A stretch of DNA of 64,000 nt from Fidelibacterota bacterium (GCA_016845065.1 JAERTG010000100.1:107360-171359); one strand, 5' to 3'; counted from the first letter of the stretch, positions 48,705 through 64,000 are shown. The notes: a model not told the origin generated them from the letters alone. Program-made: numbers and translations.

Positions 48705-49892
48705 CTATTTCTCTTCCAATTCAACACGATACAAAAGAACAGCATTGTGAATATGAATTGCAAATAGATCTTTTCCAATTTGAGATAATTTTGGTAATGT
48801 AGTTGTCCAGCTCCCAAATGAGCTGCGATGGGCGATCTGTCCCGTTTTACTCACACCTTCCAGCTCGAAATTTCGGTAGGCCTGTACCCCACTCTCAGTA
48901 AAAAAAGGTTCATAACGTATATAGAGGAACAAACCCCAGTTGGCGAGATAGTCAGCATCACTGATGGTAGATAAATCAATGGGGTGGTAACTTGAAATAA
49001 GCGAACCGTCTCCAAGATTAACAACATTCAAGTCTTTTTCGGAGACAACAAATGCCATCTCTCGTCCAAGTGAACTAATCTCCCAGGTCTTCCAGGGGAA
49101 CTGGGCCATGATTCGTTCTCTATTAAATAGAGTCAGGTTCGACTCAAAACCGTCATGAATCTCCAGAAAGTAATAATCTGTGCCTGGCACAGGTTCAAGA
49201 CCAACAAGTCGTCCCGGGACACTTACAGGGTTCGTCAGCAATTTGTCATGATTCCAGAGGTGAATATCGACAATTGACATGGAGTCGGGCTCGTCGGGCA
49301 TTAGGCAAGAGGAAGCCGTAATGAATTCATTCCGGTTAATCAACTTTGCCATCCTGAGATTTATTCCACATTTATCTTGATCACCGGGCACTACATTCTC
49401 CAAATAGAGTAGCGTGTCCTCATTGCCCAGCTCGAGAATCCAGGGTTGATCTTCCTGTGTGAGTAGAATCGTACCGTGAGTCGTGAGCTTTGAATTGAGT
49501 TTTCCCTCGCCCAAAGGGACACCATGAACCAGTGTGTAGTCTGGATTACCCTGATAATCATAGACCTGAAATGAGTAGAGTCTCTGGGGATTAAATGCAT
49601 CGATTGACTCGTTCTCCTGAATCAACACAAAGCTGGAAAGATCCTGATTTACTTTGAACTTATCATTTGGTGTGCGGTGGATTTGGATGACATGGTTGCC
49701 AAGACTGTCATAATAGGAAATCTGATTCTCGGTGATGGTATACATGATGGGAAAACCATTGGTGTTTGACCTGAATATGACCTCTTCAAGAGGGGTGTCA
49801 AATGTCCATTGGGCATATGGCTCAATATGCAAGACATCAGCTCTAGCAAGTTGTAGCAAAGTTAAAAAAAATACGAGATACCTAATTATCAC
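48705..49892 (-). CDS. Secreted hypothetical protein (395 aa)
   Basis: N-terminal signal peptide. No recognisable domain. Lies in the T9SS-linked operon. Confidence 0.5.
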   Translation of the reverse strand: MIIRYLVFFLTLLQLARADVLHIEPYAQWTFDTPLEEVIFRSNTNGFPIMYTITENQISYYDSLGNHVIQIHRTPNDKFKVNQDLSSFVLIQENESIDAFNPQRLYSFQVYDYQGNPDYTLVHGVPLGEGKLNSKLTTHGTILLTQEDQPWILELGNEDTLLYLENVVPGDQDKCGINLRMAKLINRNEFITASSCLMPDEPDSMSIVDIHLWNHDKLLTNPVSVPGRLVGLEPVPGTDYYFLEIHDGFESNLTLFNRERIMAQFPWKTWEISSLGREMAFVVSEKDLNVVNLGDGSLISSYHPIDLSTISDADYLANWGLFLYIRYEPFFTESGVQAYRNFELEGVSKTGQIAHRSSFGSWTTTLPKLSQIGKDLFAIHIHNAVLLYRVELEEK

Positions 49893-49899
49893 GGCTCAC

Positions 49900-52041
49900 C
49901 TATTTAAGCAAAACTATTTTTTGTGTCTTACTGTGTGCTTCGCCTTGAAGCAGCTGTACAAAATAAGCGCCGCTAGGGAGACTTATCCCATTATTATTTT
50001 TTGCATTCCAGGTCCAATGATAACTTCCAGGTATATCACTCCCCAATTTTGCATCAACCACCTGACTACCACTGATATCATAAATGAGTATTCTAGCACC
50101 AGAGTGCTGATTCAAATGGTACTCAATATTGACTGAAGCGTTAAATGGGTTCGGATATATTCTAGATATGGACATTTGTTGCGGCACTTGAGTATCTCTC
50201 AGGTCACTGGTTCCATCGAAGTACTGGAGGACACGGCCAACCAGCTCAGCGCGTTGAGTCTCTGTGTCAATGGTTTCGAAGGCCAAACCCATGACAAACG
50301 TTCCTGAGCTATTATCCAGAAAGCTCACTGCTGCATTCAAGCCATTCCCATATTGAAGGGCTATTTCTCCATTTGATGATACACCAAAATGATCAGGCCA
50401 ATCCTCTTCATAGGGACTGGTTCCATAATTAAAACTGATATCAGAAAAGTGAGGACCTACACCATTCACGGAGGGGTGATTACCATCATCACCCAGGTAG
50501 GTTATGTGCAAGGTTTCGTTCAAAAAAGCAATATCACTAGGAGATCCAACACTGAGATCATAGCCAATCTCTGCTCCAGACGCAAACAAGTAGCCACCTC
50601 CACCCAGATATTCAGAAATTACATTTTGCTCAGATGAGCTAAATGTTTCAGATGTTCTGCTATCATCCCCTAGAAACCAGAATACTGATGAGTAATCTTC
50701 GAGACTCTGAGCTTCTGTCACCCATTCATTGCTAGCCGATGCTATTGCGGCATCTGAACCGCTATTCACAATTGCTTCCGAATAGTATGTTGCGAAATCA
50801 TGTTGGATCGAGGTCCATGAACCATTTGTGCGATCAAAACCATCTACTATGAGAATTGTAGGTTGGGCGGCACTAAGACGTGCCCCATATGTGTCTGAAT
50901 ACCCACTACGATTCGGAATGGGTGCAGTATCCACTGCCAATAATCGAAATTGGATATATGAGTTTTCCGGAAATTCTTCTACCGTAAAACTAGTCAAATT
51001 CGAAGTGAGAATATCCGGCCCGTGATTCGAACTCCAGGTTGTTCCATTAAAAGAGAATTCCAGAATGTATCCACCAAGATCAGGATCATTCGGGCCTTCC
51101 CATTCCAGATATAACTGACCATCTGCGTTGGGTCCTACATAGGTGAAGTTGGGTTGACCGGGTGGAAGTAAGTCAACATCACTGAGTTGAACACGGACAT
51201 AGGTCGTATCCCAATTGTCGCGAGTATCTGAGCTCATGACAGATATGACATAGGGACCTGGTTCATAAATTGTACAGTCGAGATAGTCATTTGCTGTGAT
51301 TCGATTGGTGACAATATATCTGTATATACTCGTACTGGAGCCAGGCGCATAAACTCGGTTGATGTTTGAATTGGAATACAGCTCATCAGCTTCGAACCAA
51401 AAATGTGGTCCACGTAAAACTTCAGACGTGTCTGATGAGTGTAATGCCCATCCAATAGTGTAGATGCCGTTGTTCATATCAATACTGGACCATAGATCTG
51501 TTGTGTCAGCTGCCTGTGCGATAATATCCACATGTCCGCTGAGTGTTACTCCAGGAAAAGCTGCAGAGCTACCATCTCTAACAAATTGAATGATTGGAGA
51601 CCGGGGATGATAGGGATCCACAAAAGGTGTGAGTTTCCCCGGTAAAAGTGGGTTACCGGTGGGGTGTCCGCTTGCACCACCCCCATAGTTAAGATGAATA
51701 TGAGCATAACTGTCTGTATGACCCACCACTGCTCCCTGAGCGACGGTATTTCCTACTTGAAGTCCTGCCAGAGGAATTACATGGACATAGGCAAAATCTT
51801 CGACACGAATCCAATCCGACCCAATACCAGTCACGGTGCCAGCCATGATGCTCAGGGCATTTTCACCAGGAGCTAAGGGCATATCGGTACCATTGTGAAA
51901 ATGGTCCCTGTCTTCTCGGCATTCATCAAATGTAGCAGATATGCGATGTTGTTGATCCATGGGTGCCATGGGCCATGGGAAGTTGTTTATCTGAGCCATA
52001 AGACTCAGAGGCAGCAGAATAAGAAGAGTTTTAAGTGGCAT
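49900..52041 (-). CDS. Secreted M23/LytM-family metallopeptidase with FN3-like domain and canonical T9SS C-terminal sorting domain
   Basis: M23 motifs (HNGTDMP...AG and AHIHLNYG). FN3-like block (PPGQPNFTYVGPNADGQLYLEWEGPNDPDLGGY). C-terminal domain of about 85 aa (IYPNPFNASVNIEY...GAYFVQLL...KIVLLK) matches the T9SS type-A CTD pattern. Confidence 0.8.
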   Translation of the reverse strand: MPLKTLLILLPLSLMAQINNFPWPMAPMDQQHRISATFDECREDRDHFHNGTDMPLAPGENALSIMAGTVTGIGSDWIRVEDFAYVHVIPLAGLQVGNTVAQGAVVGHTDSYAHIHLNYGGGASGHPTGNPLLPGKLTPFVDPYHPRSPIIQFVRDGSSAAFPGVTLSGHVDIIAQAADTTDLWSSIDMNNGIYTIGWALHSSDTSEVLRGPHFWFEADELYSNSNINRVYAPGSSTSIYRYIVTNRITANDYLDCTIYEPGPYVISVMSSDTRDNWDTTYVRVQLSDVDLLPPGQPNFTYVGPNADGQLYLEWEGPNDPDLGGYILEFSFNGTTWSSNHGPDILTSNLTSFTVEEFPENSYIQFRLLAVDTAPIPNRSGYSDTYGARLSAAQPTILIVDGFDRTNGSWTSIQHDFATYYSEAIVNSGSDAAIASASNEWVTEAQSLEDYSSVFWFLGDDSRTSETFSSSEQNVISEYLGGGGYLFASGAEIGYDLSVGSPSDIAFLNETLHITYLGDDGNHPSVNGVGPHFSDISFNYGTSPYEEDWPDHFGVSSNGEIALQYGNGLNAAVSFLDNSSGTFVMGLAFETIDTETQRAELVGRVLQYFDGTSDLRDTQVPQQMSISRIYPNPFNASVNIEYHLNQHSGARILIYDISGSQVVDAKLGSDIPGSYHWTWNAKNNNGISLPSGAYFVQLLQGEAHSKTQKIVLLK

Positions 52042-53213
52042 TACCGGCTTATCTCAAGCCATTCATAGTTCGTTCCTATGAAGAATCGGTCACCATCATT
52101 TTGAACTTGAAATAGTTTGGGAAAACGGGGATCGATTTGTACATCGGTGTTTTCTAGAGACTGAGGAAAAAAGATTTGTGCGAAGTGTGTATTTCTTTTG
52201 GCAAAGAAATCTGCGGCAACACGAATGATTGCTACCTCACCGCGGTTGTTAACTGACAATCCTAAACAAATGCGATTATTGTTGTCAAATCTAATTTTTT
52301 CAACTCGTTTGAAGTTCAGATCAAACAGCTGAATGTATTCATGACTGCTAAGGACTGCGAGATAGCGGCCATTGGCAGATAATTTAAGCTCATGACCATA
52401 ATTCTCATTATTCCAGAGCATCTTCCCATCACTGGTAAGTTCAACAATCATGGGTTTCATTTCCTGATCAACTGCGGAATAATCGTAGCCACTGACGAAG
52501 AAGCGTTGATTTTGAAAAACCAATTTCTGCAAATAGGTAAATGGTAAATAAGCAGTTTTCTGTTCACGACCGTTGCTGTTTATGCGAATAAACAGAGATT
52601 TTCCAGCTGGACCACCATTAAATCCAGGTCGTTCAAGTAATATGTAGCATTGATCCCCAATCCACTGCAAGAGAACATTGCGCTCCATACTCATCTCCCC
52701 ATCATCTTCATACAACTGTCCTTCTGAGATGAGGTTACCAGATTCATAGAACCAGATCAAAGCCTTTACTGGATCCACGAGGGCGAGGATGCCCTTATCA
52801 GATATTGCAGATACCAGCGGTTTGAGATCTGCATCAGAACCTCGATTTACTGTATAAAGCAATTCGGAGTGATCATCCAACACGAAATAGTCTGAATACC
52901 GTTTGTTGTTTTTTATTTCACCCAAATCCTGGAGGCGTGAAACAAGTCGATACTCCCCATTTGGTGAGAGGGTAATTGTGGATTCTGGATCATAAGCAGA
53001 TATTCTTCTAATCGATTGATTATCAATGGAATACTTAGCACTACTTGAAGTATAATATAGTGGACGTCCATCCACCGATACCCATGAAATAGCGGCATCA
53101 TCGACTTCAATAATTTGATCTATCTGGAATGCAGATACCCCCCCGGATAGCATTATCAACAGAGCTAATAAAGACGCATTGCTAATTTTCATTGGCTTCC
53201 TTCTCTCCTTCAA
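52041..53213 (-). CDS. Secreted hypothetical protein (390 aa)
   Basis: Signal peptide (LLALLIMLSGGVSA). No recognisable domain. Stop overlaps the M23 gene start by 1 nt. Confidence 0.5.
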   Translation of the reverse strand: MKERRKPMKISNASLLALLIMLSGGVSAFQIDQIIEVDDAAISWVSVDGRPLYYTSSSAKYSIDNQSIRRISAYDPESTITLSPNGEYRLVSRLQDLGEIKNNKRYSDYFVLDDHSELLYTVNRGSDADLKPLVSAISDKGILALVDPVKALIWFYESGNLISEGQLYEDDGEMSMERNVLLQWIGDQCYILLERPGFNGGPAGKSLFIRINSNGREQKTAYLPFTYLQKLVFQNQRFFVSGYDYSAVDQEMKPMIVELTSDGKMLWNNENYGHELKLSANGRYLAVLSSHEYIQLFDLNFKRVEKIRFDNNNRICLGLSVNNRGEVAIIRVAADFFAKRNTHFAQIFFPQSLENTDVQIDPRFPKLFQVQNDGDRFFIGTNYEWLEISR

Positions 53214-53243
53214 ATTCGATTATCAGAATATGAGAAACACCGG

Positions 53244-54284
53244 TTAAAATTCCAAACTTATACTAAAGCGACGAGTATCATTCAATATTCCCCAATCACC
53301 ATAGGCAAGATCCAGTTTAAAACGAAGGTTGCGGGCGATAAGAAAATTTACACCTCCCCCAACATTAAACCCTTCTGGAGAAAGGGTGTTACCATCTTCA
53401 TCCACATCATCAAGATAGAATGTCTGACCAGCTCTGAGGAAAGCCAAATCCATTAGATTGAATTCTCCACCAATACTAACACTCTCAGAATAGTTGTTGG
53501 GATGAGCAGCATCTACAGCCAGTGTGAGCTTACCGTGACGTATTTTCACTACATCTGCCGCCAAACCAACCCTGAAAGTTAGAGGAAGTGACCAGTAGTC
53601 TGTGTCGAGGTGGGCATTGATGCGGGAATTGTTACCTTCCTGATCGGGAGCAACATCAACCTCGATCAGTGTGTCATCCCCCTTCAACTGCATTTTACCA
53701 CCGAAGTTTGACACGCTCATGCCAACTCTCAGGTCTCTGAACTGAGTTTTGAAGGTGGTTCCGAGATCCACAGCTACTGAGCTGGCTTTCATATGCCAGA
53801 TACGTTCCTCAATATATTTCACATTAGCGCCGAAAGTAAATCGATCCGTAAACTTTCTGCCCCATCCTAGGGTTGCCGATAGATCAGTAGCTCCGAAGCG
53901 TTCTCCAGTACCATCTGGTTGGTCAATCGTGGTGACATCCATTTCTTCAATGGAGATACTGGTCAGGGCTACACCAACAGTACCCAAATTACCCATGGGG
54001 AAGGCAGCTGATACATTGTTAAAACTAATACCTGCCAGCCAATTGGTCTGGATAAAACTCACTTCGCTCTTATTCATCAGAGCCAAGCCACCTGGATTCC
54101 AGTACAATGAATGGACATCATCAACTACAGCAACATACGCATTACCCATAGAAGTACCCCGAGCTCCGATTCCAATTTCCAGGAATGACGCAGCTGTGGT
54201 ACCCCGTTTTGAGACAGCCTGTGTGGTTGTGACCAATAATAGGAAGATGATTGCGATACGAATGGAGTTTCTTGATAGTTTCAT
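53244..54284 (-). CDS. PorV/PorQ-family (FadL-like) outer-membrane beta-barrel protein, copy B
   Basis: After the signal peptide: GTTAASFLEIGIGARGTSMGNAYVAVVDDVHSLYWNPGGLA, the conserved N-terminal block of T9SS PorV/PorQ-type proteins. Beta-barrel-like alternating pattern and a C-terminal aromatic (F). Paralogous to 62569..63615. Starts 9 nt after the stop of the giant CTD protein. Confidence 0.6.
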   Translation of the reverse strand: MKLSRNSIRIAIIFLLLVTTTQAVSKRGTTAASFLEIGIGARGTSMGNAYVAVVDDVHSLYWNPGGLALMNKSEVSFIQTNWLAGISFNNVSAAFPMGNLGTVGVALTSISIEEMDVTTIDQPDGTGERFGATDLSATLGWGRKFTDRFTFGANVKYIEERIWHMKASSVAVDLGTTFKTQFRDLRVGMSVSNFGGKMQLKGDDTLIEVDVAPDQEGNNSRINAHLDTDYWSLPLTFRVGLAADVVKIRHGKLTLAVDAAHPNNYSESVSIGGEFNLMDLAFLRAGQTFYLDDVDEDGNTLSPEGFNVGGGVNFLIARNLRFKLDLAYGDWGILNDTRRFSISLEF

Positions 54285-54293
54285 GTCAACCTC

Positions 54294-57200
54294 CTACTTA
54301 ATCACTGCAAATTTGCTGACATGATTACCAATTCCAGGTGCTTCTACGTGGTATAGATACACGCCATAGGCAATCTCCAATCCATCTCTAGACAGGAGAT
54401 TCCAGGATTCAGCACCATCCCATATTTCAGCATTATGATTGATGGAATTCACAAACTTTCCACTCAGGGTATAAATACTGATCGTACATTCCGGAGGCAA
54501 ATTGATGAAGTCTATCTTGCGCACTCCCCGTCCAGAATCATAAAGATGCTGTGGTTCCCAGGAGGCTGTTACCACATAAGGATTTGGTACCACTGAGATA
54601 TCCTCCAGAAGGCTTGAGGGAGCGTTCACATCGATATCACCACCTGTGGCAGAGAAGGTCAGCACATCATGAGCAGAGAAGGGTTTTCTCGACTTGACGA
54701 TGAATTGATCACCAGGTTCTGGAGCCCAGTTATCCCATACACCATCCTTCAATCTTGCTACTGAATTTTCAGTACCAATCCAAATCGCTCCATCGTCAGT
54801 TTGATTTATGCACTGAAGAAGGTTAGTGCCAAATGCGGCTACATCATCCTTGGTATAGGCAGAGTAGACGGTATCAACACCATTGAAGTCAATTACGTTG
54901 TAACCTTTTTTGGTAACAAGATGGACTTTTCCATCTGAGGCAACTATGAGATCATTCACTTTTCTATCTAGTATGCTATCTTTATTTGCATAGGTAACAC
55001 TATCCAGGGCAAAGTTGTAGATTACCAACCCTTTGTCCTTAGTACCAATAAATAGTTCGGCCTGGTTGGTAGCGAGGGAAATAATTTTATCAGTTGGTAG
55101 GTTAGAATTAGTCTTGTTTAAATACCAGAAGCTAGTATTGGATGGTTGGTAAAACTCAATTCCTTCTGATTGGGTACCGACAACAATAGTTCCATCATCC
55201 AGAGAAATCAATTCTGTGGATGCATTTTGTAATACACCTGTCATTACTGAGTCTCCACTAATGGTATTGAACTCCCCATTATTGAAATTGACAGAGGTGA
55301 TTGCATTTACACCCCAAATCTCTCCTATTTGAGTCTGGTGCCAATCCCATCGAAAGATCCCTTTTGATGAAATGGACCATAAAATGCCATTTTTGTCCTC
55401 CAAAACTCTATGAAATTGGAGATATTCATTCTTCACACCTTCAGAATTATCAGCATCAACTACAAGATCAATTTGGTAATTCTGCCAACCATATTGATTG
55501 TGAACACTCAATCCTCCCGTGGATCCCACCATTATGTTGCCAGAAATATTATAAGATATATCCAAAACATTGTTGGTAAGTAGACCCGCATCATCTTTTA
55601 TGTTACCCCAGGTTTCTCCATCATATAAACCAAGGCCCTGACTTGCAGTGGCAAAAACAGTAAAGTCATCCCATTGAGCAATACGATTCACATTACCAAC
55701 CTTGGACTGACTCACCATTTTCCAGGTCACACGATCTTCGCCACCAGCTAAAATGGTGGGATAAATCACAGAACCAGGTCTGAGGGTCGTATCCGACAGA
55801 GTCTGAGCTATTAATCGCACTGGAAGATCATTGGTGAGATCTCTCATGCTGAATGCCATCCGTTTGTTCAGATAGATAGATGTATCAGTAACTGTCGGAT
55901 TGATGGTCAATTGATAATCAAAGGGAACTAATTTGAGGTCAACGTTATTATGTCGTTCCGGATAGAGATTGATTTCATAGTTCAAACCGGTTCTCATCCA
56001 CCCAGTTTCCTGTTCATTCAATGCAATCACATCATTGGTAACATTTATCTTGAATCCCTCTGTGACCATACCTCGTCCCTCTCCTGAAAAGTTGGTCTGG
56101 TCTGAAAGTAATACATTACCAGTGGTCAAGTTTGTAAGCTGATAAGAGCTTGTGTGGCGCGGAACCTCATCAACATCATTGGCATCAAAATGAGGCTCAC
56201 CTGCATCTGGCATGGCGTTGGCCTGTGTTCCGTTTGGATTTGTCAACTCGTTCCAATTGTCCTGGTTGGGATCACCACCCAGATTTAGCTCCGTTTCAGA
56301 GCAGGGATTCAATGGATCCCCTGTTTCAAATGCATCATTACAGCCATCAGATCCAAGATCATCATAGATTTCTTCCCACCCATCCCATAAACCCAATGTT
56401 GGATACAGTGTGAAGGTCGTATCTGGAATCTCCACAAAATATTGGAGGTAAGTCGAATCGTCCACAGTCACGGTCTGCGTGTCAACGAATGAGGTGATAA
56501 AATTGAACCCGTTAAAAATAAAATTAGTCGTACTCTCGGTAATCCCCTGAAAGAGATGAGCCCCGGGAAGTGTAAATATCAGGGTATCAGAATTTGGGGG
56601 GATCATCATCTCCAGCGTACTATTCAGAGTAATAGTAGTTGAGTCATCAGTCCAGGTGCGCCAATCACCATCATTGTCGATACCATCTTCAGACCAATCC
56701 CTGAATGTGATCTGGTATTGATCCATATTTCTGATTTTGGATGGATCAACCACTTCAATTTCCAGTGATCCTGTTCCCAGCGTTGTGGCTGCATCAGCTA
56801 CAATTTCAGGTGGTAAATATGCCATTGCAGGTGCGTTTGGCACTGCAACACCAGTATTGATACCGAATTTTACGGGAATTCCAGAAGCATTGATCTCTAT
56901 CTTCTTGGTACACTCAGAAGGTGTAATGGGTGGTCTCAGTTCAATTTCAGAAATCCCGCGATCATAAAAATCATAGTCGAACCCATAATCATAGGCTACA
57001 ACTGCGTAATAATATGTTTGCCCGTTGTTAACCGTCGTATCTGTCCAGGAGTGCCTTATACCAGTATCAGTACCCATATCCAGGTGAATACCGTTCAGAC
57101 CATATGGATGTGGACCTACCAGGCCATCTGCCTTGTCAAATTGAGCAATGGGCTTGTTAAAGGTCTGATTGCCATAAGTATCCGTAATATTCCAGACCTC

Positions 57201-59096
57201 ATTGAAGGCTGGGTCAGTAGCACGATATATGCGATAGCCCTCAAAATCATTTCCATAGATGGGATCCAGACTGTATTCGGCCTTATCATCCCAATATAGG
57301 GTGACCTGCCCATCTCCAGGAACCACGGTGAGTTTTGGGAGGTTTGGTGGTTTAGCAAAATTATAGTCACTATTGTAAATCTGCTGCATGGTCTCAGAAT
57401 TACGCAAGATATCCTCATAATCATTTCCGAATATGAGTGCTACAGCAAATTTTCGTTCCTCTTGCTGGGGAAGCTCAAAGTAGGCTGATCCATACATGAA
57501 GGTTAGATCAACAGTTTGGGAAATATCTGTAAAAGACCCTGGTGATAGTTGTTCCCAGGCATTTGCATCACGGGTAAGATCAATACCCGGGTATGGACCG
57601 GCTGTAAAACTTGTGAGACCAATCTGGTCAGATTCATCATTATCTGTGTATTCAAAATTTGGCTCACCTGGATCGGGTACGCCATTTCCTTCGGTTCCAT
57701 CTGCATCAGGACCTAGATATTCACCGAAATTCGGTCCAACACCATCAGAACCTGTATCATCCACATAGGGGTCCCAATCACCATCATTGTCAATCCCATC
57801 ATCTTGACTTTCGTCAATCATTCCGTCTTCATCATTATCACGACTATCCAGGGGGTTTCCTGGTGATTCGAGATATTTCCAACCAAAATATGCTGGAACA
57901 TATCCACCATCATTTACGGTCCAAAGGTCATGATCCCACTGATAAACAATGTCATTTACGGTATCAAACCAGGCATCATCATCCCGTTGATCTCCATCAT
58001 CACCAACATCAGCATCCCCATACATGCCAAAGATGAATTTTTGATAATCCCAGGAACTGATATTCTGGATCCAGTAGGTAAAAATCAAAATATCTTCTGC
58101 AGCTGGATGTGCCCATTGATAACCTCTTGCAGAGACATCTACACCGAGACCTCTTTTAAGACCATCATAGATGTAATAGTCCATATCCTGATCTGAAGTG
58201 TTGGCACGACCAGCAAACGTTTTGATCAGGATTTGGTTATCGTTTATAATTTCTTCGATTTCATACCACTTATCATCAAGAACCCGAACTACATCCGGGC
58301 GTCGTCCATCTCTTGGATCAATTGCGTCTGATCGAGCAACATCCCGTACCAGACCATCAAATGTGGTATTCATATCCGTAAGGATAGCATAATCATTGGA
58401 GTCAGAATTGGCCAATTGAACAATACTTCCAGAATGAAGCACAGTATCTACCAGGATGGGATAGTGTTTAAATTCATCATTGTTAAAGTCATCCATGTGG
58501 AAGTAGCTTTCCTGATCTGCGCGACTGTACTGACCGTACTGACCGGCCCATCTGTTATCCCATTCAGAGGAAAGGTTTGCCCAACTATCGGGCCATGAAA
58601 GACTATCGTCACTCATTGCTATGAGTGAATCATTTGTATTCGCATATCCCAGTCTCGGTTCAAACTGCCAGAGATAGTCATCTGATGTTGGCTTGTCGAT
58701 GGAGCTTGAGGGCATTCCCTCACTGACAATATGCAGTGGAGCACCGTTGGCATTTGGGGTTTCTGCAGCCACGAGTGGTGAGAATTCTGCAAGGTATGAA
58801 CGTCCGCTACCAATAGGATAGATACCACAATCATATCTTCCTGGTGAGTTTCTCCAATCCGCGATGGATCCATAATTTGTGAATCTCGTGAGAATTTTAT
58901 TGCCATTGTGTACACCAAGCCTGCGATTACCATGTCCATTGGCGTCAGTACCCAGGGTACCCACTTTTCTCAATATATTTGGTTTGGGATGAATGTTTTT
59001 ATCTGAGCTCGCTGCTTCCAGGACAAAGGGAACTGCCAGGAAGACCACCATCAGTATTATAGTCTTATTGATTTTCATTGCTAGCCCTTGACTCAT
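54294..59096 (-). CDS. Giant secreted T9SS cargo protein (1600 aa): Asp-rich Ca-binding repeats, FN3-like domain, Cys-bracketed D-rich module, Reg_prop-type beta-propeller repeats, variant C-terminal sorting domain
   Basis: Signal peptide. TSP3-like DxDxDG repeats (DNDEDGMIDESQDDGIDNDGDWDP...) at about aa 360-495. FN3-like block at about aa 585-705. A GSDGCND...PCSETELNLGGDPNQDNWNELTNPNG module at about aa 905-980. Two-component-regulator-propeller-like repeats at about aa 1140-1490. C-terminal domain VVPNPYVVTASWEP...ISIYTLSGKFV...AYGVYLYHVE...KFAVIK. Confidence 0.8.
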   Translation of the reverse strand: MSQGLAMKINKTIILMVVFLAVPFVLEAASSDKNIHPKPNILRKVGTLGTDANGHGNRRLGVHNGNKILTRFTNYGSIADWRNSPGRYDCGIYPIGSGRSYLAEFSPLVAAETPNANGAPLHIVSEGMPSSSIDKPTSDDYLWQFEPRLGYANTNDSLIAMSDDSLSWPDSWANLSSEWDNRWAGQYGQYSRADQESYFHMDDFNNDEFKHYPILVDTVLHSGSIVQLANSDSNDYAILTDMNTTFDGLVRDVARSDAIDPRDGRRPDVVRVLDDKWYEIEEIINDNQILIKTFAGRANTSDQDMDYYIYDGLKRGLGVDVSARGYQWAHPAAEDILIFTYWIQNISSWDYQKFIFGMYGDADVGDDGDQRDDDAWFDTVNDIVYQWDHDLWTVNDGGYVPAYFGWKYLESPGNPLDSRDNDEDGMIDESQDDGIDNDGDWDPYVDDTGSDGVGPNFGEYLGPDADGTEGNGVPDPGEPNFEYTDNDESDQIGLTSFTAGPYPGIDLTRDANAWEQLSPGSFTDISQTVDLTFMYGSAYFELPQQEERKFAVALIFGNDYEDILRNSETMQQIYNSDYNFAKPPNLPKLTVVPGDGQVTLYWDDKAEYSLDPIYGNDFEGYRIYRATDPAFNEVWNITDTYGNQTFNKPIAQFDKADGLVGPHPYGLNGIHLDMGTDTGIRHSWTDTTVNNGQTYYYAVVAYDYGFDYDFYDRGISEIELRPPITPSECTKKIEINASGIPVKFGINTGVAVPNAPAMAYLPPEIVADAATTLGTGSLEIEVVDPSKIRNMDQYQITFRDWSEDGIDNDGDWRTWTDDSTTITLNSTLEMMIPPNSDTLIFTLPGAHLFQGITESTTNFIFNGFNFITSFVDTQTVTVDDSTYLQYFVEIPDTTFTLYPTLGLWDGWEEIYDDLGSDGCNDAFETGDPLNPCSETELNLGGDPNQDNWNELTNPNGTQANAMPDAGEPHFDANDVDEVPRHTSSYQLTNLTTGNVLLSDQTNFSGEGRGMVTEGFKINVTNDVIALNEQETGWMRTGLNYEINLYPERHNNVDLKLVPFDYQLTINPTVTDTSIYLNKRMAFSMRDLTNDLPVRLIAQTLSDTTLRPGSVIYPTILAGGEDRVTWKMVSQSKVGNVNRIAQWDDFTVFATASQGLGLYDGETWGNIKDDAGLLTNNVLDISYNISGNIMVGSTGGLSVHNQYGWQNYQIDLVVDADNSEGVKNEYLQFHRVLEDKNGILWSISSKGIFRWDWHQTQIGEIWGVNAITSVNFNNGEFNTISGDSVMTGVLQNASTELISLDDGTIVVGTQSEGIEFYQPSNTSFWYLNKTNSNLPTDKIISLATNQAELFIGTKDKGLVIYNFALDSVTYANKDSILDRKVNDLIVASDGKVHLVTKKGYNVIDFNGVDTVYSAYTKDDVAAFGTNLLQCINQTDDGAIWIGTENSVARLKDGVWDNWAPEPGDQFIVKSRKPFSAHDVLTFSATGGDIDVNAPSSLLEDISVVPNPYVVTASWEPQHLYDSGRGVRKIDFINLPPECTISIYTLSGKFVNSINHNAEIWDGAESWNLLSRDGLEIAYGVYLYHVEAPGIGNHVSKFAVIK

Positions 59097-62000
59097 ATTG
59101 AAGTTGAGAAACCGATTCGAATCTGTCTAGGAGACGAATAGTAGCTCGGTCTGTTTAAATATTCTTCAATCGTATTGTAATTCCAGCCAGGATCCTGGGT
59201 AGTATAGGTTGGAATAAGTGAATACCCAGAGCGACCTGTATCCGAATAAACAGAGACTTCGTTTCTTATATCGAGAAGGTTATAAACATTGGCCGTAAAT
59301 CCTATTTCTCGACCTAGCAGCATAAACTTCTTGGAGATTCTCATATCTACGTTGATTTGGGTTGGTCGACGACCGCTGTTCTCGAAGCTACCTCCCACCA
59401 GATTCAATGAAGTCGGGGTATAAGGTAATCCAGATCCATACTCACCAATGAAACTGAGGTTGACCTTATATGGTAGTTTAAACAAAACAGAGCCATTGAG
59501 TGTGTGCCGTTGATCCCAATCCAGATAGACTAATTGCTTCTCTGTATCACGATTATTCTGAGCATCCCAAAATGCAGATCTTGGGTCAGAGGCATTACCT
59601 TCAGCTACACTGTAGGTATAGTCCAGGTTAGCTGAAAATCCTTGTGAGAGTCTTTTTGTCAAGGAAACGGTAATTCCCTTTACGTTTCCATAATCACGGT
59701 TGACATAAACTCCATATACCTCATTAGTGTAGGTCGTGACAATCTTTGAACCCAATAAATTACTGATATCCTTGTAGAATCCAGTTACATCTACACCTAT
59801 ATCCTCTCCAAACTGCTGCTGAAACCCAACCTCGTACTGGACGGTCTTTTGAGGTTCCAGGTCTGCATTACCCATAGTAGCAGAAGCAATGCTCCCTCCT
59901 GCCGGCACTTCGAAATCAGGATTTATATAGAGATAGGTATAACTCGGTATTTGGAAGAAGTGGCCATAGGAGAAGTGCAAGACACCCTTATCGGTGATTG
60001 GATAGGCCATGGCCAGTCGAGGACTGAATTGTACCTTCTTGGAAGCCTCCTTGAACCAGTACTCCATGCGATCTTCCAGAGTTTTTGCGTTAGTATCAAC
60101 CGCTTCATCCTCTGAAATCTGACCATTCCCGTCTATATCATGAAATCTGTTAACCAATTTAAGGGGTGATTTCGGATTAGGATCTGATGGATCCGAAGGT
60201 GTCACACCATCTGGATCAAATATTTCGTATCTCAACCCTGCATTCACTATCATATCCACAACTTCGATCTTATCCTGGAGATAAACTGCAAACTCAGAAG
60301 GATTCTTGACCATCTCACTATATGTTGGTGTTGTGGGGCTTACATCGGGTGTAAGAATTTGCGGTGTGAAATATCCTTCGGCTGGATCGTAAATGATGGA
60401 AAAGTCCCTTCGAAAGATGCTGGTGTATTTGTATTCAAGACCACCTTGCAGCTGATGCATTTTATTTATCTGGTTGGTCATATCAAATTTGATCAATTGA
60501 CTACGTGTCATCCGATACAGGTGGTATTTAGAGATACCACCCAGGTTGAATTTCTGACCGACTGAGGCATCAAGAATATTGTTGTCATTCTCATAGTCCT
60601 CAAGATTGTTGGAATCATAAGCAGTATCTGCAGGCATATCAAAATCGGAGATATTGAACATGTTCGACATAAATATCTGATTCCAATTGACATCATAAAT
60701 GGGTTCATAATAGGATCGACCCAAATTCCCAAGAATTGACGCCTTGACACTATAGAAGGCCTCGGGGCTGAGTGTATGTTGTAGAACAAGACCTATATTC
60801 ATATTGGTCCCATAAGAAGTCGCTCGTCCCTCGGGCGTATATTTCCAGTTTAGCGAACTACTGTTGTAAGTTTCTGAACTTCCGTAAAGAACATTGAGAG
60901 AGAGTTTTAATTGTTGTGTGAAGCGATGTGTAAGTTTTCCCTGAAGGTTAAGACTCTTTGAGTTATATAGTGGCACTACGGCGTTGTCACCGCGCATATT
61001 CGTCCATTCCCCGTCCTGGTCCCCATCTATGTACCATTCACCACTCAAAGCGCCATTGCCATCCAGATCTTCGTAGGTTACCTCAGGAAAACCAACATCT
61101 GTATCGACGTCTGAATCCCATTCTCCATTGCCATTGTTATCTCGATACCAGGTGCCAGTGGCATTATCGAGGAATACATCTGGGTCGATGGGATAAACAC
61201 GATCACCACCATCCCATAGACCGTTTCCTGATTCACCACCATCTCTGATGTTATTGCCTTCTCCACCATTGGGATTGAGATAGAAGTCCCAATTATCTCC
61301 ATTGGGATCATCACCCAGGTTTAAGGGTACACTGGAGCAGCCTCCTGTTCCATTTTCATATTCATCGGGACAACCATCCTCACCATAATCGATATAATCA
61401 GAGAAATATTCACCATTTTCAATGGGCATGGAATTGGTGTTATCCCAGTAAAAAGAATCAGTATTAAATCGTCGCACACCATATAGACGACCAGCCAGAT
61501 CTTCATACCTGCCTGAAGTAAAAAATGATGTCGTCTTTGCCAGTCCAGGCACCGGTCCACTCATACTCCACTGGAAATCATGTCTACCCTGGGGCGTAAA
61601 GACATCAGGATTGGTTCCAAAAATGTCTACTTTAGAAATGTCGAGATCATCTTTTAAAGCCAGATCTCCAGGAATAATACCAAGATATATTTCAGGATCT
61701 GGAGATATATAGCGACCATAGCGATAGCTCAGTTCACCGGAATAATCACTCAAACTTCCATCCTTGGTGATGATATTGATAATACCTGACATGGCCTGGC
61801 CATATTCAGCGTTGAATGTTCCTGAAATAACCTGTAGTTCCTGGATGGCATTGTTTTCAATACCAACACCCATATTCTGACCGTAGGAGTTTGTGACTGG
61901 GATACCATCAATCAGGTAAGCAACTTCAGAGGATCGTCCACCGCGGATATGAATTGCCCCAGAGCCATCGACAACCACACCAGCTTGCAATGAGACAGCA

Positions 62001-62568: not shown

Positions 62569-63615
62569 TTAAAAATACAAGCTTAGATTAAATCTTTGGA
62601 CATTGTTCAGACGCCCAAAATCAGCATAAGCATAGTCAAATCGTAATCCTGAGGCAGATCCAAATATGGGCAGATCAAATCCTGCTCCGAATGTGAAACC
62701 TTCCTCGCGAGCTTCAAGGTCAGAGGCTGCAAGACTGGTGTTGGTCTCAACAAAGGGTGATTTCCAACCCCCTCTTAGAAAGTATTTATCCAATATATTG
62801 AGCTCAGTACCGATATTGATTGATTCATAATTGTCATTTGGATGAATAGCATCTACTGCCAATGTCAATTTGGTAACGCCAACTTCAATCACATCCATGG
62901 CAACACCCACACGAAAGATGAGTGGTAAATCCCAGTCATCCAGTGCATAATCAACTGGAATAGCATCATTATTGCCTTCAAAGCCAGGTGCGGGGTCATA
63001 ACGTTCCAGAATATCCCGGCCGGACATCCTTAAACTCGATCCATAATTGGATATACTCATTCCGAGACGCATATCATTGAACTGGGTCCTGAACAGGGTA
63101 CCTACATCTACAGCCATAGCGCTAGCCCGGCTATGCCAGATGGTCTGCTGTATATATTTACCATTAAATCCAATCGAAAAACGATCTGTGAGTGATCTTG
63201 CCAGAGTTACCTGAAGCGCTAAATCGCTGGCAGTAAATTCCTCACCGGTTCCGTTGGGTTCCAGTTCAGTTGTCACAGGCATATCATCCATTGTTAAGGA
63301 GGTAACACTCAGACCAACAGTACCAATCCCATATAGAGGAAAAATAACACCCATGTAGTTGATGGCCACATCAGCAATCCAATTGTTCCGAAGGAACATG
63401 ATCTCGCCACCACCAGCCTGAGCAATACCAGCTGGGTTCCAATAGAGTCCTGAAGCATCGCGGCTCATGGCGACATATGCCTCACCCATACCAGTAGCTC
63501 GGCTACCAATACCTATTTTGAGAAATTGTGCTGCAGTCGTACCACCCTTGTATTGTCCAAAGCTCATTGAAACAGCGATTACAAGGAGCATGATCATTTT
63601 CTTCTGCATGGTCAA
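62569..63615 (-). CDS. PorV/PorQ-family (FadL-like) outer-membrane beta-barrel protein, copy A
   Basis: After the signal peptide: GGTTAAQFLKIGIGSRATGMGEAYVAMSRDASGLYWNPAGIA, plus a C-terminal FNLSLYF. Paralogous to 53244..54284 at roughly 40-45% identity by eye. Starts 5 nt after the stop of the upstream partial giant-protein gene. Confidence 0.6.
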   Translation of the reverse strand: MTMQKKMIMLLVIAVSMSFGQYKGGTTAAQFLKIGIGSRATGMGEAYVAMSRDASGLYWNPAGIAQAGGGEIMFLRNNWIADVAINYMGVIFPLYGIGTVGLSVTSLTMDDMPVTTELEPNGTGEEFTASDLALQVTLARSLTDRFSIGFNGKYIQQTIWHSRASAMAVDVGTLFRTQFNDMRLGMSISNYGSSLRMSGRDILERYDPAPGFEGNNDAIPVDYALDDWDLPLIFRVGVAMDVIEVGVTKLTLAVDAIHPNDNYESINIGTELNILDKYFLRGGWKSPFVETNTSLAASDLEAREEGFTFGAGFDLPIFGSASGLRFDYAYADFGRLNNVQRFNLSLYF

Positions 63616-63620
63616 TCTCC

Positions 63621-64000
63621 TTATTTAATCACGGCAAATTTGCCGATGGTTTCTGCGTTATCGGTTTCAACGTGATATATGTAAACACCATAGGCAACCT
63701 CCAGGTTATCCAGGTTCAATAGGTCCCAGGATTGAGCACCGTTATAGACAGACTCATGGTGTTCCAATTTTCTAACCAACTCGCCAGCCATGGTATAAAT
63801 CCGGATTGTACAGTCTGTGGGGAGGTTGATAAAATAGATCTTACGTTCTCCTCGTCCTGACTGCAAATATGGCTTTTGTTCCCAGATGGCGGCTGCCACA
63901 TAGGGATTTGGCACGACGGAAACTTTGTGAAGCTCGTTGGCAACTTTTTCAGCATCTTCTTTTGCAGCTGTGGTCTCATATCTGTAGACATCCCGGGAGC
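63621..64000 (-). CDS. C-terminal end of a second giant T9SS cargo protein (partial; continues beyond window)
   Basis: The reading frame is open to the window edge (...EDAEKVANELHKVSVVPNPYVAAAIWEQKPYLQSGRGERKIYFINLPTDCTIRIYTMAGELV...AYGVYIYHVE...KFAVIK). This C-terminal domain is clearly homologous to the CTD of the 1600 aa protein (54294..54600). Confidence 0.7.
   Translation of the reverse strand, partial: SRDVYRYETTAAKEDAEKVANELHKVSVVPNPYVAAAIWEQKPYLQSGRGERKIYFINLPTDCTIRIYTMAGELVRKLEHHESVYNGAQSWDLLNLDNLEVAYGVYIYHVETDNAETIGKFAVIK

Follow-up and report, generated by a model that had tools for sequence, protein, structure and literature searches.

A PorV-like barrel, a TonB-dependent transporter and a large protein with a divergent sorting tail are encoded together in Fidelibacterota and other phyla

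Genes at the locus

The window considered here is a stretch of 64,000 nucleotides (nt) from a Fidelibacterota bacterium (GCA_016845065.1 JAERTG010000100.1:107360-171359), grouped below with the Neomarinimicrobiota. Its high-coordinate end encodes two giant proteins, X-A and X-B, and an M23-like protein, all of which carry C-terminal sorting domains (CTDs) of the kind belonging to a type IX secretion system (T9SS). Each giant protein is followed by a gene for a PorV-like outer-membrane barrel, and X-B is preceded by a gene for a TonB-dependent transporter, giving a transporter-X-barrel triad. A preliminary description of this DNA had reported two CTD subtypes inside one locus, and this holds: one canonical type-A tail, that of the M23-like protein, is accompanied by two longer variant tails, those of the giant paralogues. 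The transporter, which is a third invariant partner, was absent from that description. All of the genes discussed lie on the minus strand and are given from high to low coordinate.

63621..64000, minus strand: C-terminal end of X-A, cut by the window end (last 125 aa, 63621-63998); variant CTD at about nt 63624-63932, ending VVPNPYVAAAIWEQ...KFAVIK
62569..63615, minus strand: barrel A, a PorV/PorQ-family outer-membrane barrel of 348 aa; NF033709 at 203.6 bits
59093..62440, minus strand: TonB-dependent transporter B, 1115 aa; PF13715, PF13620, PF07715 and PF00593 all above cut-off
54294..59096, minus strand: giant protein X-B, 1600 aa; conserved core and variant CTD
54297..54611, minus strand: variant CTD of X-B (aa 1496-1600), VVPNPYVVTASWEP...KFAVIK; 206 bits on the variant profile
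53244..54284, minus strand: barrel B, a PorV/PorQ-family outer-membrane barrel of 346 aa; NF033709 at 202.4 bits
52041..53213, minus strand: 390-aa protein with signal peptide; kept downstream of barrel B in Neomarinimicrobiota relatives (L001-L007, L081)
49900..52041, minus strand: 713-aa M23-like protein; canonical T9SS type-A CTD at aa 628-713 (about nt 49903-50160)
48705..49892, minus strand: 395-aa protein with signal peptide; part of the tail of the Neomarinimicrobiota locus, with order kept in L001, L003, L005, L006 and L081
47605..48663, minus strand: TolB/PD40 beta-propeller protein, 352 aa; PF07676 PD40 at 94.5 bits, with order kept in L001, L003, L005, L006 and L081

The genes of the triads are tightly packed. 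The end of transporter B overlaps the start of X-B by 4 nt, barrel A starts 6 nt after X-A, and barrel B starts 9 nt after X-B, in the same frame. The gene after the canonical-tail M23-like gene is an unrelated 395-aa open reading frame (ORF), and not a barrel. The upstream extension of the locus was read from L081, a 70%-identical relative, in which a first set of transporter (1183 aa), X (1581 aa) and barrel (346 aa) comes before a second one with a transporter of 1107 aa, an X of 1598 aa and a barrel of 348 aa; genes for 383, 714, 398 and 352 aa follow, as in the window. This arrangement indicates that the window starts inside a first triad, A; X-A is probably about 1580 aa long, with its own transporter outside the window. 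Two triads in tandem are found in the Neomarinimicrobiota. The paralogues are old: identity is 36% between X-A and X-B and 46% between barrels A and B.

The variant tail and the family that carries it

The canonical tail of the M23-like protein is recognised by the standard models for type-A domains (TIGR04183, 38.3 bits with a cut-off of 23; PF18962, 36.8 bits with a cut-off of 27). Variant tail A is just over the first cut-off (24.3 bits) and under the second (20.7 bits), and variant tail B matched neither TIGR04183 nor PF18962 at E<0.01. Identity between the tails of X-A and X-B is 49-55%, and their identity to the canonical tail is 20%. Both are longer by about 12 residues in the segment that leads from the PNP motif to the I-x-I-Y strand, and the variant-specific insertion is near-invariant, reading WEP...GRGxRxIxFxNLPxxC (E19, G27, R28, G29, R31, F35, L38, P39, C42). 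On a profile of variant CTDs, the tails of X-A and X-B score 185.9 and 206 bits, respectively. When variant and canonical CTDs were compared profile to profile with hhalign, an alignment of 68 columns, restricted to beta2-beta7, had a probability of 97% (E = 1e-10), and because of this alignment the variant CTD appears to be a divergent offshoot of the type-A domain and not a standard member of it. For the type-B sorting domain (TIGR04131/PF13585 CHU_C), tail A scored 19.2 and the M23-like tail 17.6 bits, under the cut-off of 27, and no NCBIfam type-B model matched the variant or M23-like tails at E<0.01. When the C-terminal 130 aa of every ORF with 80 aa or more were scanned for CTD motifs, no further CTD-bearing ORF turned up in the 64 kb. 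X was also considered as a PorZ or PorU orthologue and this was rejected: tail A matches NF052228 (22.9 bits) and NF033707 (16.1 bits) in the CTD region only, with cut-offs of 260 and 420, and full-length X-B has no NCBIfam match at E<0.01.

In the AlphaFold model of an X homologue the variant insertion (residues 994-1008) has a predicted local distance difference test score (pLDDT) below 50. Since its residues are near-invariant across phyla and yet poorly ordered in the modelled monomer, the WEP...GRGxR insertion is a candidate partner-binding loop.

The variant CTD marks one widespread family lacking annotation, here termed X, and appears not to be a general second sorting tag. After removal of the tail, 85 of 90 passengers fell into one BLAST cluster, and the X core was carried by 81 of the 83 top new library matches of at least 400 aa. 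The scan that gave these matches covered 1.84 billion representatives with the variant profile and found 465 clusters (50% identity) at E<=1e-30. A further set of approximately 3900 library representatives matched the profile at E = 1e-30 to 1e-10; these sit between the X tails (>120 bits) and the canonical tails of the loci described below (<=44 bits), and could be fragments or additional CTD subclasses. As the passengers are nearly all homologous, the variant CTD is inseparable from family X. A full-length search gave at least 2444 X homologues at E<=1e-10, all named 'hypothetical', and among the 120 X homologues listed none had a precomputed PF18962 match.

Members of the family range from 1030 to 1600 aa in length, the Neomarinimicrobiota having a long form of 1565-1604 aa as against 1030-1280 aa elsewhere. 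X-B is laid out as a Sec signal peptide, the core, an FN3-like domain, a lineage-specific C-terminal extension with propeller-like repeats and the variant CTD. The core (X-B aa 1-213 and 311-800) is 37-62% identical to proteins of other phyla, and X-B has no Pfam or NCBIfam family except for a weak Reg_prop match, and no sequence match in the PDB. The additional C-terminal region (aa ~1140-1480; 54657-55679) shows weak matches to the two-component-regulator propeller PF07494, reminiscent of PorZ propellers. The AlphaFold model of the X homologue has a pLDDT of 71.5 and a predicted template modelling score of 0.58. X is predicted to contain, besides an FN3-like domain, a beta-supersandwich of the galactose-mutarotase type and numerous Asp/Asn repeats of the Ca-binding kind.

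Association of tail, barrel and transporter across genomes

Searching with the variant tail gave 155 fragments, all from metagenome-assembled genomes (MAGs) of Marinimicrobia, Ignavibacteria, KSB1 and 'Bacteroidota'; these were short pieces at contig ends, uninformative about the passengers, and were used as alignment seeds. The profile from one fragment alignment (A2) led to 80 genome loci from Neomarinimicrobiota, KSB1, Calditrichia, Ignavibacteria and others, and the counts given here are for these loci together with the window. On the variant profile 95 ORFs scored above 120 bits, and 85 of them had a PorV-like gene on their own strand no more than 1.5 kb downstream. When gene sets were made non-overlapping, a barrel came directly after the variant-CTD gene in 81 of 92 cases. 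A canonical-CTD profile, built iteratively, found 93 canonical-CTD proteins in the same loci, and none of these (0/93) was directly followed by a barrel (Fisher p = 7.8e-41). The cargos with canonical tails are diverse: ten sampled neighbours included GH16 with malectin, GH2, GH26, CBM9 and LamG proteins, and nine of the ten pass PF18962. Among the non-adjacent cases, the barrel lies one gene later behind a peptidyl-prolyl isomerase (PPIase)-like gene in L032, L044, L048 and L076, and upstream of the variant-CTD gene in L039, L064 and L079; the other exceptions are cut by contig ends. Moreover, all of the PorV-like genes in the loci adjoin a variant-CTD gene. The genomic association is thus solid, and the earlier observation that only variant-CTD cargos are paired with an adjacent PorV-like gene extends across phyla.

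The transporter is tied to X in the same way. A homologue of it lies directly upstream of X in 65 of 95 cases, and most of the others are cut by contig ends. The median gap between X and barrel is 11 nt and that between transporter and X about 12 nt; 4-nt overlaps are frequent, and these tiny gaps and overlaps suggest translational coupling of all three genes. An overlap of 4 nt between X and barrel is seen in 18 related loci, and the transporter-X junction behaves alike. The triad is present in Neomarinimicrobiota, KSB1, Calditrichia, Ignavibacteria/Melioribacteraceae and Gemmatimonadota. In one gemmatimonadotal locus (L083; CP070758.1, 2401-11026) the order is a transporter of 899 aa, an X protein of 933 aa, an X paralogue of 651 aa that is shorter at its N-terminus, and a single barrel; the variant profile gives about 197 bits for each of the two X proteins. 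At a further locus, L084 (CP070762.1, 945-9032), there is only a 562-aa ORF without Pfam match before the barrel and no transporter gene immediately upstream; IS110-type and DDE_3 transposase genes are near, and the locus looks disrupted.

Transporter B combines an N-terminal CarboxypepD_reg domain with a Plug and a 22-strand-type barrel (PF07715, 41.5 bits; PF00593, 83.4 bits). Ahead of the plug is the sequence GDVVTVTAD, which we judge to be a TonB-box-like motif. Comparison of the transporter with PDB chains by sequence was uninformative. Transporter B (aa 349-403; 61232-61396) and X-B (aa 911-967; 56196-56366) have in common a 57-aa module with a Cys pair and many Asp/Asn residues (DGCxDxxExG...C...LNLGxDPNxDNW...NPNG; 51% identical, E = 4e-12). 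A motif scan located this module in only four transporters (those of the window and of L001-L003) and three X proteins (of the window, L001 and L002); it is a lineage-specific insert that occurs in both proteins of one triad.

The preliminary description had proposed that the variant CTD is the recognition tag for the dedicated barrels. Adjacency agrees with this proposal, but a tag borne by different cargos does not emerge, in view of the single family to which 85 of 90 passengers belong; with the CTD confined to family X, a conserved operon accounts for the barrel adjacency equally well. In its stronger form, the proposal would make the variant CTD a distinct sorting class like type B, serving a parallel branch of the T9SS in which each barrel recognises its neighbour cargo. 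The strict adjacency of variant CTD and barrel, with none for canonical CTDs, speaks for such a class, as do the co-inheritance of the tandem paralogous pairs A and B as pairs across the Neomarinimicrobiota and the precedent of cognate pairs of type-B CTDs and PorP/SprF barrels (PMC12618676). Nevertheless, the variant CTD occurs in one family only, while the canonical CTD is found on GH16, GH2, GH26, CBM9 and LamG proteins in the same loci; the two X proteins of L083 use a single barrel, which argues against strict one-barrel-one-cargo coding; and the CTD is near-uniform across phyla, without partner-specific covariation. Co-evolution between variant CTDs and PorV-like paralogues, which the preliminary description had put forward as a check, was followed through distance correlations (mirror-tree with partial correlation) on 55 complete triads, the near-invariant CTD making residue-level covariation underpowered. 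Of the triad's parts the CTD is the best conserved: its mean p-distance is 0.39, while barrel, X core and transporter have 0.56, 0.59 and 0.57, respectively. CTD and barrel distances correlate at r = 0.62, and the partial correlations, being near zero (0.15 given the X core, 0.01 given the transporter), provide no evidence for partner-specific coding, so that the check yielded no specific signal. A separate sorting class is accordingly regarded as unlikely. The companion proposal, that canonical-CTD proteins use the general pathway, is consistent with the absence of an adjacent barrel in all 93 cases.

Both barrels of the window match the PorV/PorQ family model NF033709 over its full length, at 203.6 and 202.4 bits with a cut-off of 90. 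They are under the equivalog cut-offs for PorV (NF033710, 63-68 bits with 250), PorQ (NF033711, 90-94 bits with 220) and PorV2 (NF052325, 81 bits with 325), which they match in the N-terminal half only, and they form a separate clade within the PorV/PorQ family. They may, although under the PorV equivalog cut-off, be the general PorV of the organism. The AlphaFold model of barrel B (pLDDT 81.5) has its best structural matches in Flavobacterium johnsoniae PorV (8gl6_F and 6h3i_F; E ~1e-13, template modelling (TM) score 0.66-0.69). Of these, 8gl6_F is the PorV chain of a translocon complex with bound substrate CTD (E = 1.5e-13, TM 0.69). FadL, TodX and TbuX (E = 1e-8) and BamG (9hiv_F, 9n2d_B) follow. 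The matches to FadL, TodX and TbuX would also suit a barrel that makes no contact with the CTD and acts as a FadL-type channel or accessory of uptake, co-located through a shared pathway, and the lack of CTD-barrel covariation, together with a better correlation of the barrel with the transporter than with the CTD, points the same way. However, by sequence the barrels belong to the PorV/PorQ family at 203 bits as against 22 bits, under cut-off, for FadL/Toluene_X; the top structural match is PorV, barrels of the PorV family bind CTDs in all characterised cases, and this clade co-occurs strictly with the sole divergent CTD of the loci. An uptake channel of this kind is therefore regarded as quite improbable.

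The surroundings of the triad differ between phyla. In Ignavibacteria, Calditrichia, KSB1 and related MAGs it lies among glycoside hydrolases (GHs) and associated genes (GH2, GH3, GH16, GH26, GH130, GH94-like, PPIase-like and LacI). At least one of the gene clusters F2, F9, F8 and F15, whose GH identity was confirmed in sampled members (GH2/GH16/GH26, GH3, GH130 and GH94-like), is present in 52 of 79 loci. Clusters F5-F7, assigned to ATP-binding cassette (ABC) sugar transporters, occur in 18 of 79 loci, with Pfam confirmation for the binding protein F5 only and the two permeases presumed. LacI regulators are also found in the loci of the triad. In Neomarinimicrobiota, including the window, the neighbours are instead an M23-like protein with a canonical CTD, two proteins without family and a propeller of the PD40/TolB type. 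The 713-aa protein is under the cut-off of Peptidase_M23 (PF01551, 17.8 bits with 28.7; E = 0.004, aa 48-112), and it has both the HxxxD and the HxH metal-binding motifs (HFHNGTD, HIH); the position of its gene is conserved in Neomarinimicrobiota loci, including L081. The peptidase-like neighbours favour a peptide or cell-wall substrate over a glycan, and suggest that the substrate of the neomarinimicrobial triad may be of the former kind. The 390-aa and 395-aa signal-peptide proteins, for which Pfam and NCBIfam gave no family, flank the M23-like gene, and this order is kept in Neomarinimicrobiota relatives only. The remainder of the window (1-47000) is housekeeping in character, with genes for a DinG-like helicase/exonuclease, AlaRS, ComEC, DnaX, HutH, gamma-glutamyltransferase, GcvPB, a Na/Pi symporter and an acyl-CoA ligase; these are all minus-strand genes, and the GC skew is steadily negative.

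The distances of barrel and transporter are strongly correlated, with r = 0.86 and, given the X core, a partial value of 0.61; this may reflect contact or the shared constraints of outer-membrane barrels. This correlation is also what might be seen if the TonB-dependent protein were an Oar-like exporter that moves X to the PorV-like barrel, independently of the T9SS translocon. Myxococcus xanthus needs Oar, a TonB-dependent transporter, to secrete the protease PopC (PMC6434023); the three genes of the triad are inherited, and also duplicated, together; and no T9SS core gene was seen among the ten largest ORFs of the window. On the other hand, X bears a genuine type-A-like CTD, and the many canonical T9SS cargos in the same loci imply that a T9SS exists; X, at 1030-1600 aa, folded and with many Ca sites, is very large for a 22-strand barrel; and the surrounding GHs, ABC sugar importers and LacI regulators point to uptake. 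Export of X by the transporter is thus very unlikely.

Proposed mechanism and relation to known systems

From the gene content, the adjacency, the restriction of the CTD to one family and the homologies and folds set out above, we infer retention of the tail, its docking, cooperation of X with the transporter and the nature of the substrate. In the account that we consider, on balance, rather probable, the uncleaved CTD of X is anchored by a barrel dedicated to it, and X is held beside the transporter as its capture subunit. Sec would export X, and its own divergent type-A-like CTD would direct X across the outer membrane by the type IX route. The CTD would then escape removal by the general PorV/PorU sortase route, stay attached and dock onto the barrel encoded next to it, probably via the near-invariant WEP...GRGxR insertion, and the barrel would serve as a membrane anchor that keeps X on the cell surface beside the transporter. 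There, X may capture a polymeric substrate and pass it to the transporter, the role of lipoproteins such as SusD in Bacteroidota. Degradative enzymes (GH16, GH2 and GH26 elsewhere; the M23-like protein here) carry an ordinary CTD and would use the general pathway, and the data are consistent with a different, general route for canonical-CTD enzymes.

Several points weigh against this account. The loci were chosen via the variant CTD, and the canonical control is hence local to the triads and not genome-wide; the partial correlations reveal no covariation of CTD and barrel apart from that due to common ancestry; and the scan of the ten largest ORFs found no T9SS machinery in the window, a separate general PorV/PorU being assumed in these genomes. 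The transporter is not a SusC/RagA member (TIGR04056, 78.9 bits with 368, aa 25-230 only). The model of X is moderately confident, and a supersandwich fold is no proof of glycan binding. Finally, CTD retention and contact between CTD and barrel are deduced from genomic data that a transient role for the barrel would fit equally well. In that case the barrel would be a dedicated shuttle, with the CTD subsequently cleaved and X released or attached to lipopolysaccharide. Barrel B is structurally nearest to PorV in its substrate-bound translocon state, PorV is the shuttle for type-A CTDs (PMC5562754), and the variant CTD keeps the type-A core motifs. Nevertheless, a one-cargo shuttle duplicated with every copy of its cargo would be costly if a general PorV exists, as is presumed, and where one-cargo PorV-like partners are known (PorZ-PorQ and type-B CTD-PorP), they act as anchors and the CTD is retained (PMC10202324, PMC9143113). 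The CTD is also conserved beyond the passenger core, which suits a permanent interface over a disposable signal. A transient shuttle is considered improbable, and the anchoring of X by its retained CTD is the reading carried into the comparisons below.

That a particular CTD can have its own cognate PorV-like barrel is already known in principle. The CTD of PorU is kept and binds PorV, and that of PorZ is kept and binds PorQ (PMC10202324, PMC5562754). Compared with these pairs of Porphyromonas gingivalis, the X-barrel pair is present in multiple copies per genome, adjacently encoded and coupled to a TonB-dependent transporter in nutrient loci; it is not secretion machinery, and X matches the PorZ and PorU models in the CTD only. 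Cargos with type-B CTDs need adjacent cognate PorP/SprF barrels for secretion and anchoring (PMC9143113, PMC12618676). The triad is like these systems (F. johnsoniae SprB-SprF, P. gingivalis PG1035-PorP) in that a CTD class adjoins a dedicated PorV-like barrel gene, but here the CTD appears to be type-A derived and the barrel belongs to PorV/PorQ and not PorP/SprF; type-B CTDs are, moreover, found on many unrelated adhesins, whereas the variant CTD is found on one family.

Outside the CTD systems, BamG, a FadL-type barrel, anchors the surface protein BamH (PMC12611786). In BamG-BamH a 14-strand barrel of the FadL family is the docking platform for a large surface protein, as is proposed for the pair described here, and BamG structures match barrel B; however, BamH is a lipoprotein bound by its N-terminal tail and has no CTD, and the barrels score far under the cut-off of the BamG model (NF053685, 23.7 bits with 250). 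As with Oar, the transporter of the triad is genetically tied to a secreted protein, and Oar shows that barrels of this sort can serve export, although the setting of the triad is one of nutrient uptake. The two transporters agree in domain layout, a CarboxypepD_reg N-terminal domain and a TonB-dependent barrel, and Oar is not known to have a CTD or PorV-like partner.

Resemblance to SusC/SusD (RagA/RagB) lies in a transporter of the CarboxypepD_reg type that precedes a large surface-exposed partner among GHs, regulators and sugar transporters. The differences are that no SusD-like protein is present, Pfam finding no SusD-like match in the X protein adjacent to the transporter; that X is all-beta, with a Sec signal peptide, and not a lipoprotein, its anchoring by CTD and barrel being presumed; and that the triad spans non-Bacteroidia phyla of the Fibrobacterota-Chlorobiota-Bacteroidota (FCB) group as well as Gemmatimonadota. 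A wider view, held tentatively and with less confidence than the anchoring of X itself, is that the triad might be a phylum-spanning outer-membrane nutrient-capture complex in which T9SS-delivered X, seated by its uncleaved CTD in a PorQ-like barrel, takes the place of the SusD-type lipoprotein that is lid and binding protein in Bacteroidota.

Literature searches found no description of the X family, the tail subclass, the barrel clade or the transporter coupling, which extends over five or more phylum-level lineages; genome and cluster papers on Caldithrix, Melioribacter and Ignavibacterium mention TonB-dependent receptors or Por tails and not the module, and neither the X family, the variant tail nor the barrel clade has a Pfam or NCBIfam model of its own. 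Dedicated PorV-like barrels are known from a few machinery proteins and adhesins of Bacteroidota, and here the principle would recur many times per genome, in several poorly studied phyla, in the construction of nutrient-uptake modules. If the proposed mechanism is true, it would give a role to at least 2444 homologues now named 'hypothetical' and to the 465 clusters with a strong variant CTD, and it would mean that standard CTD models under-count the substrates of the T9SS. It would also tie type IX secretion directly to TonB-dependent import, and would suggest how the triad loci, none of which has SusD next to this transporter, could supply a surface receptor. The abundant marine Neomarinimicrobiota would thereby gain a concrete candidate for a polymer-capture system.

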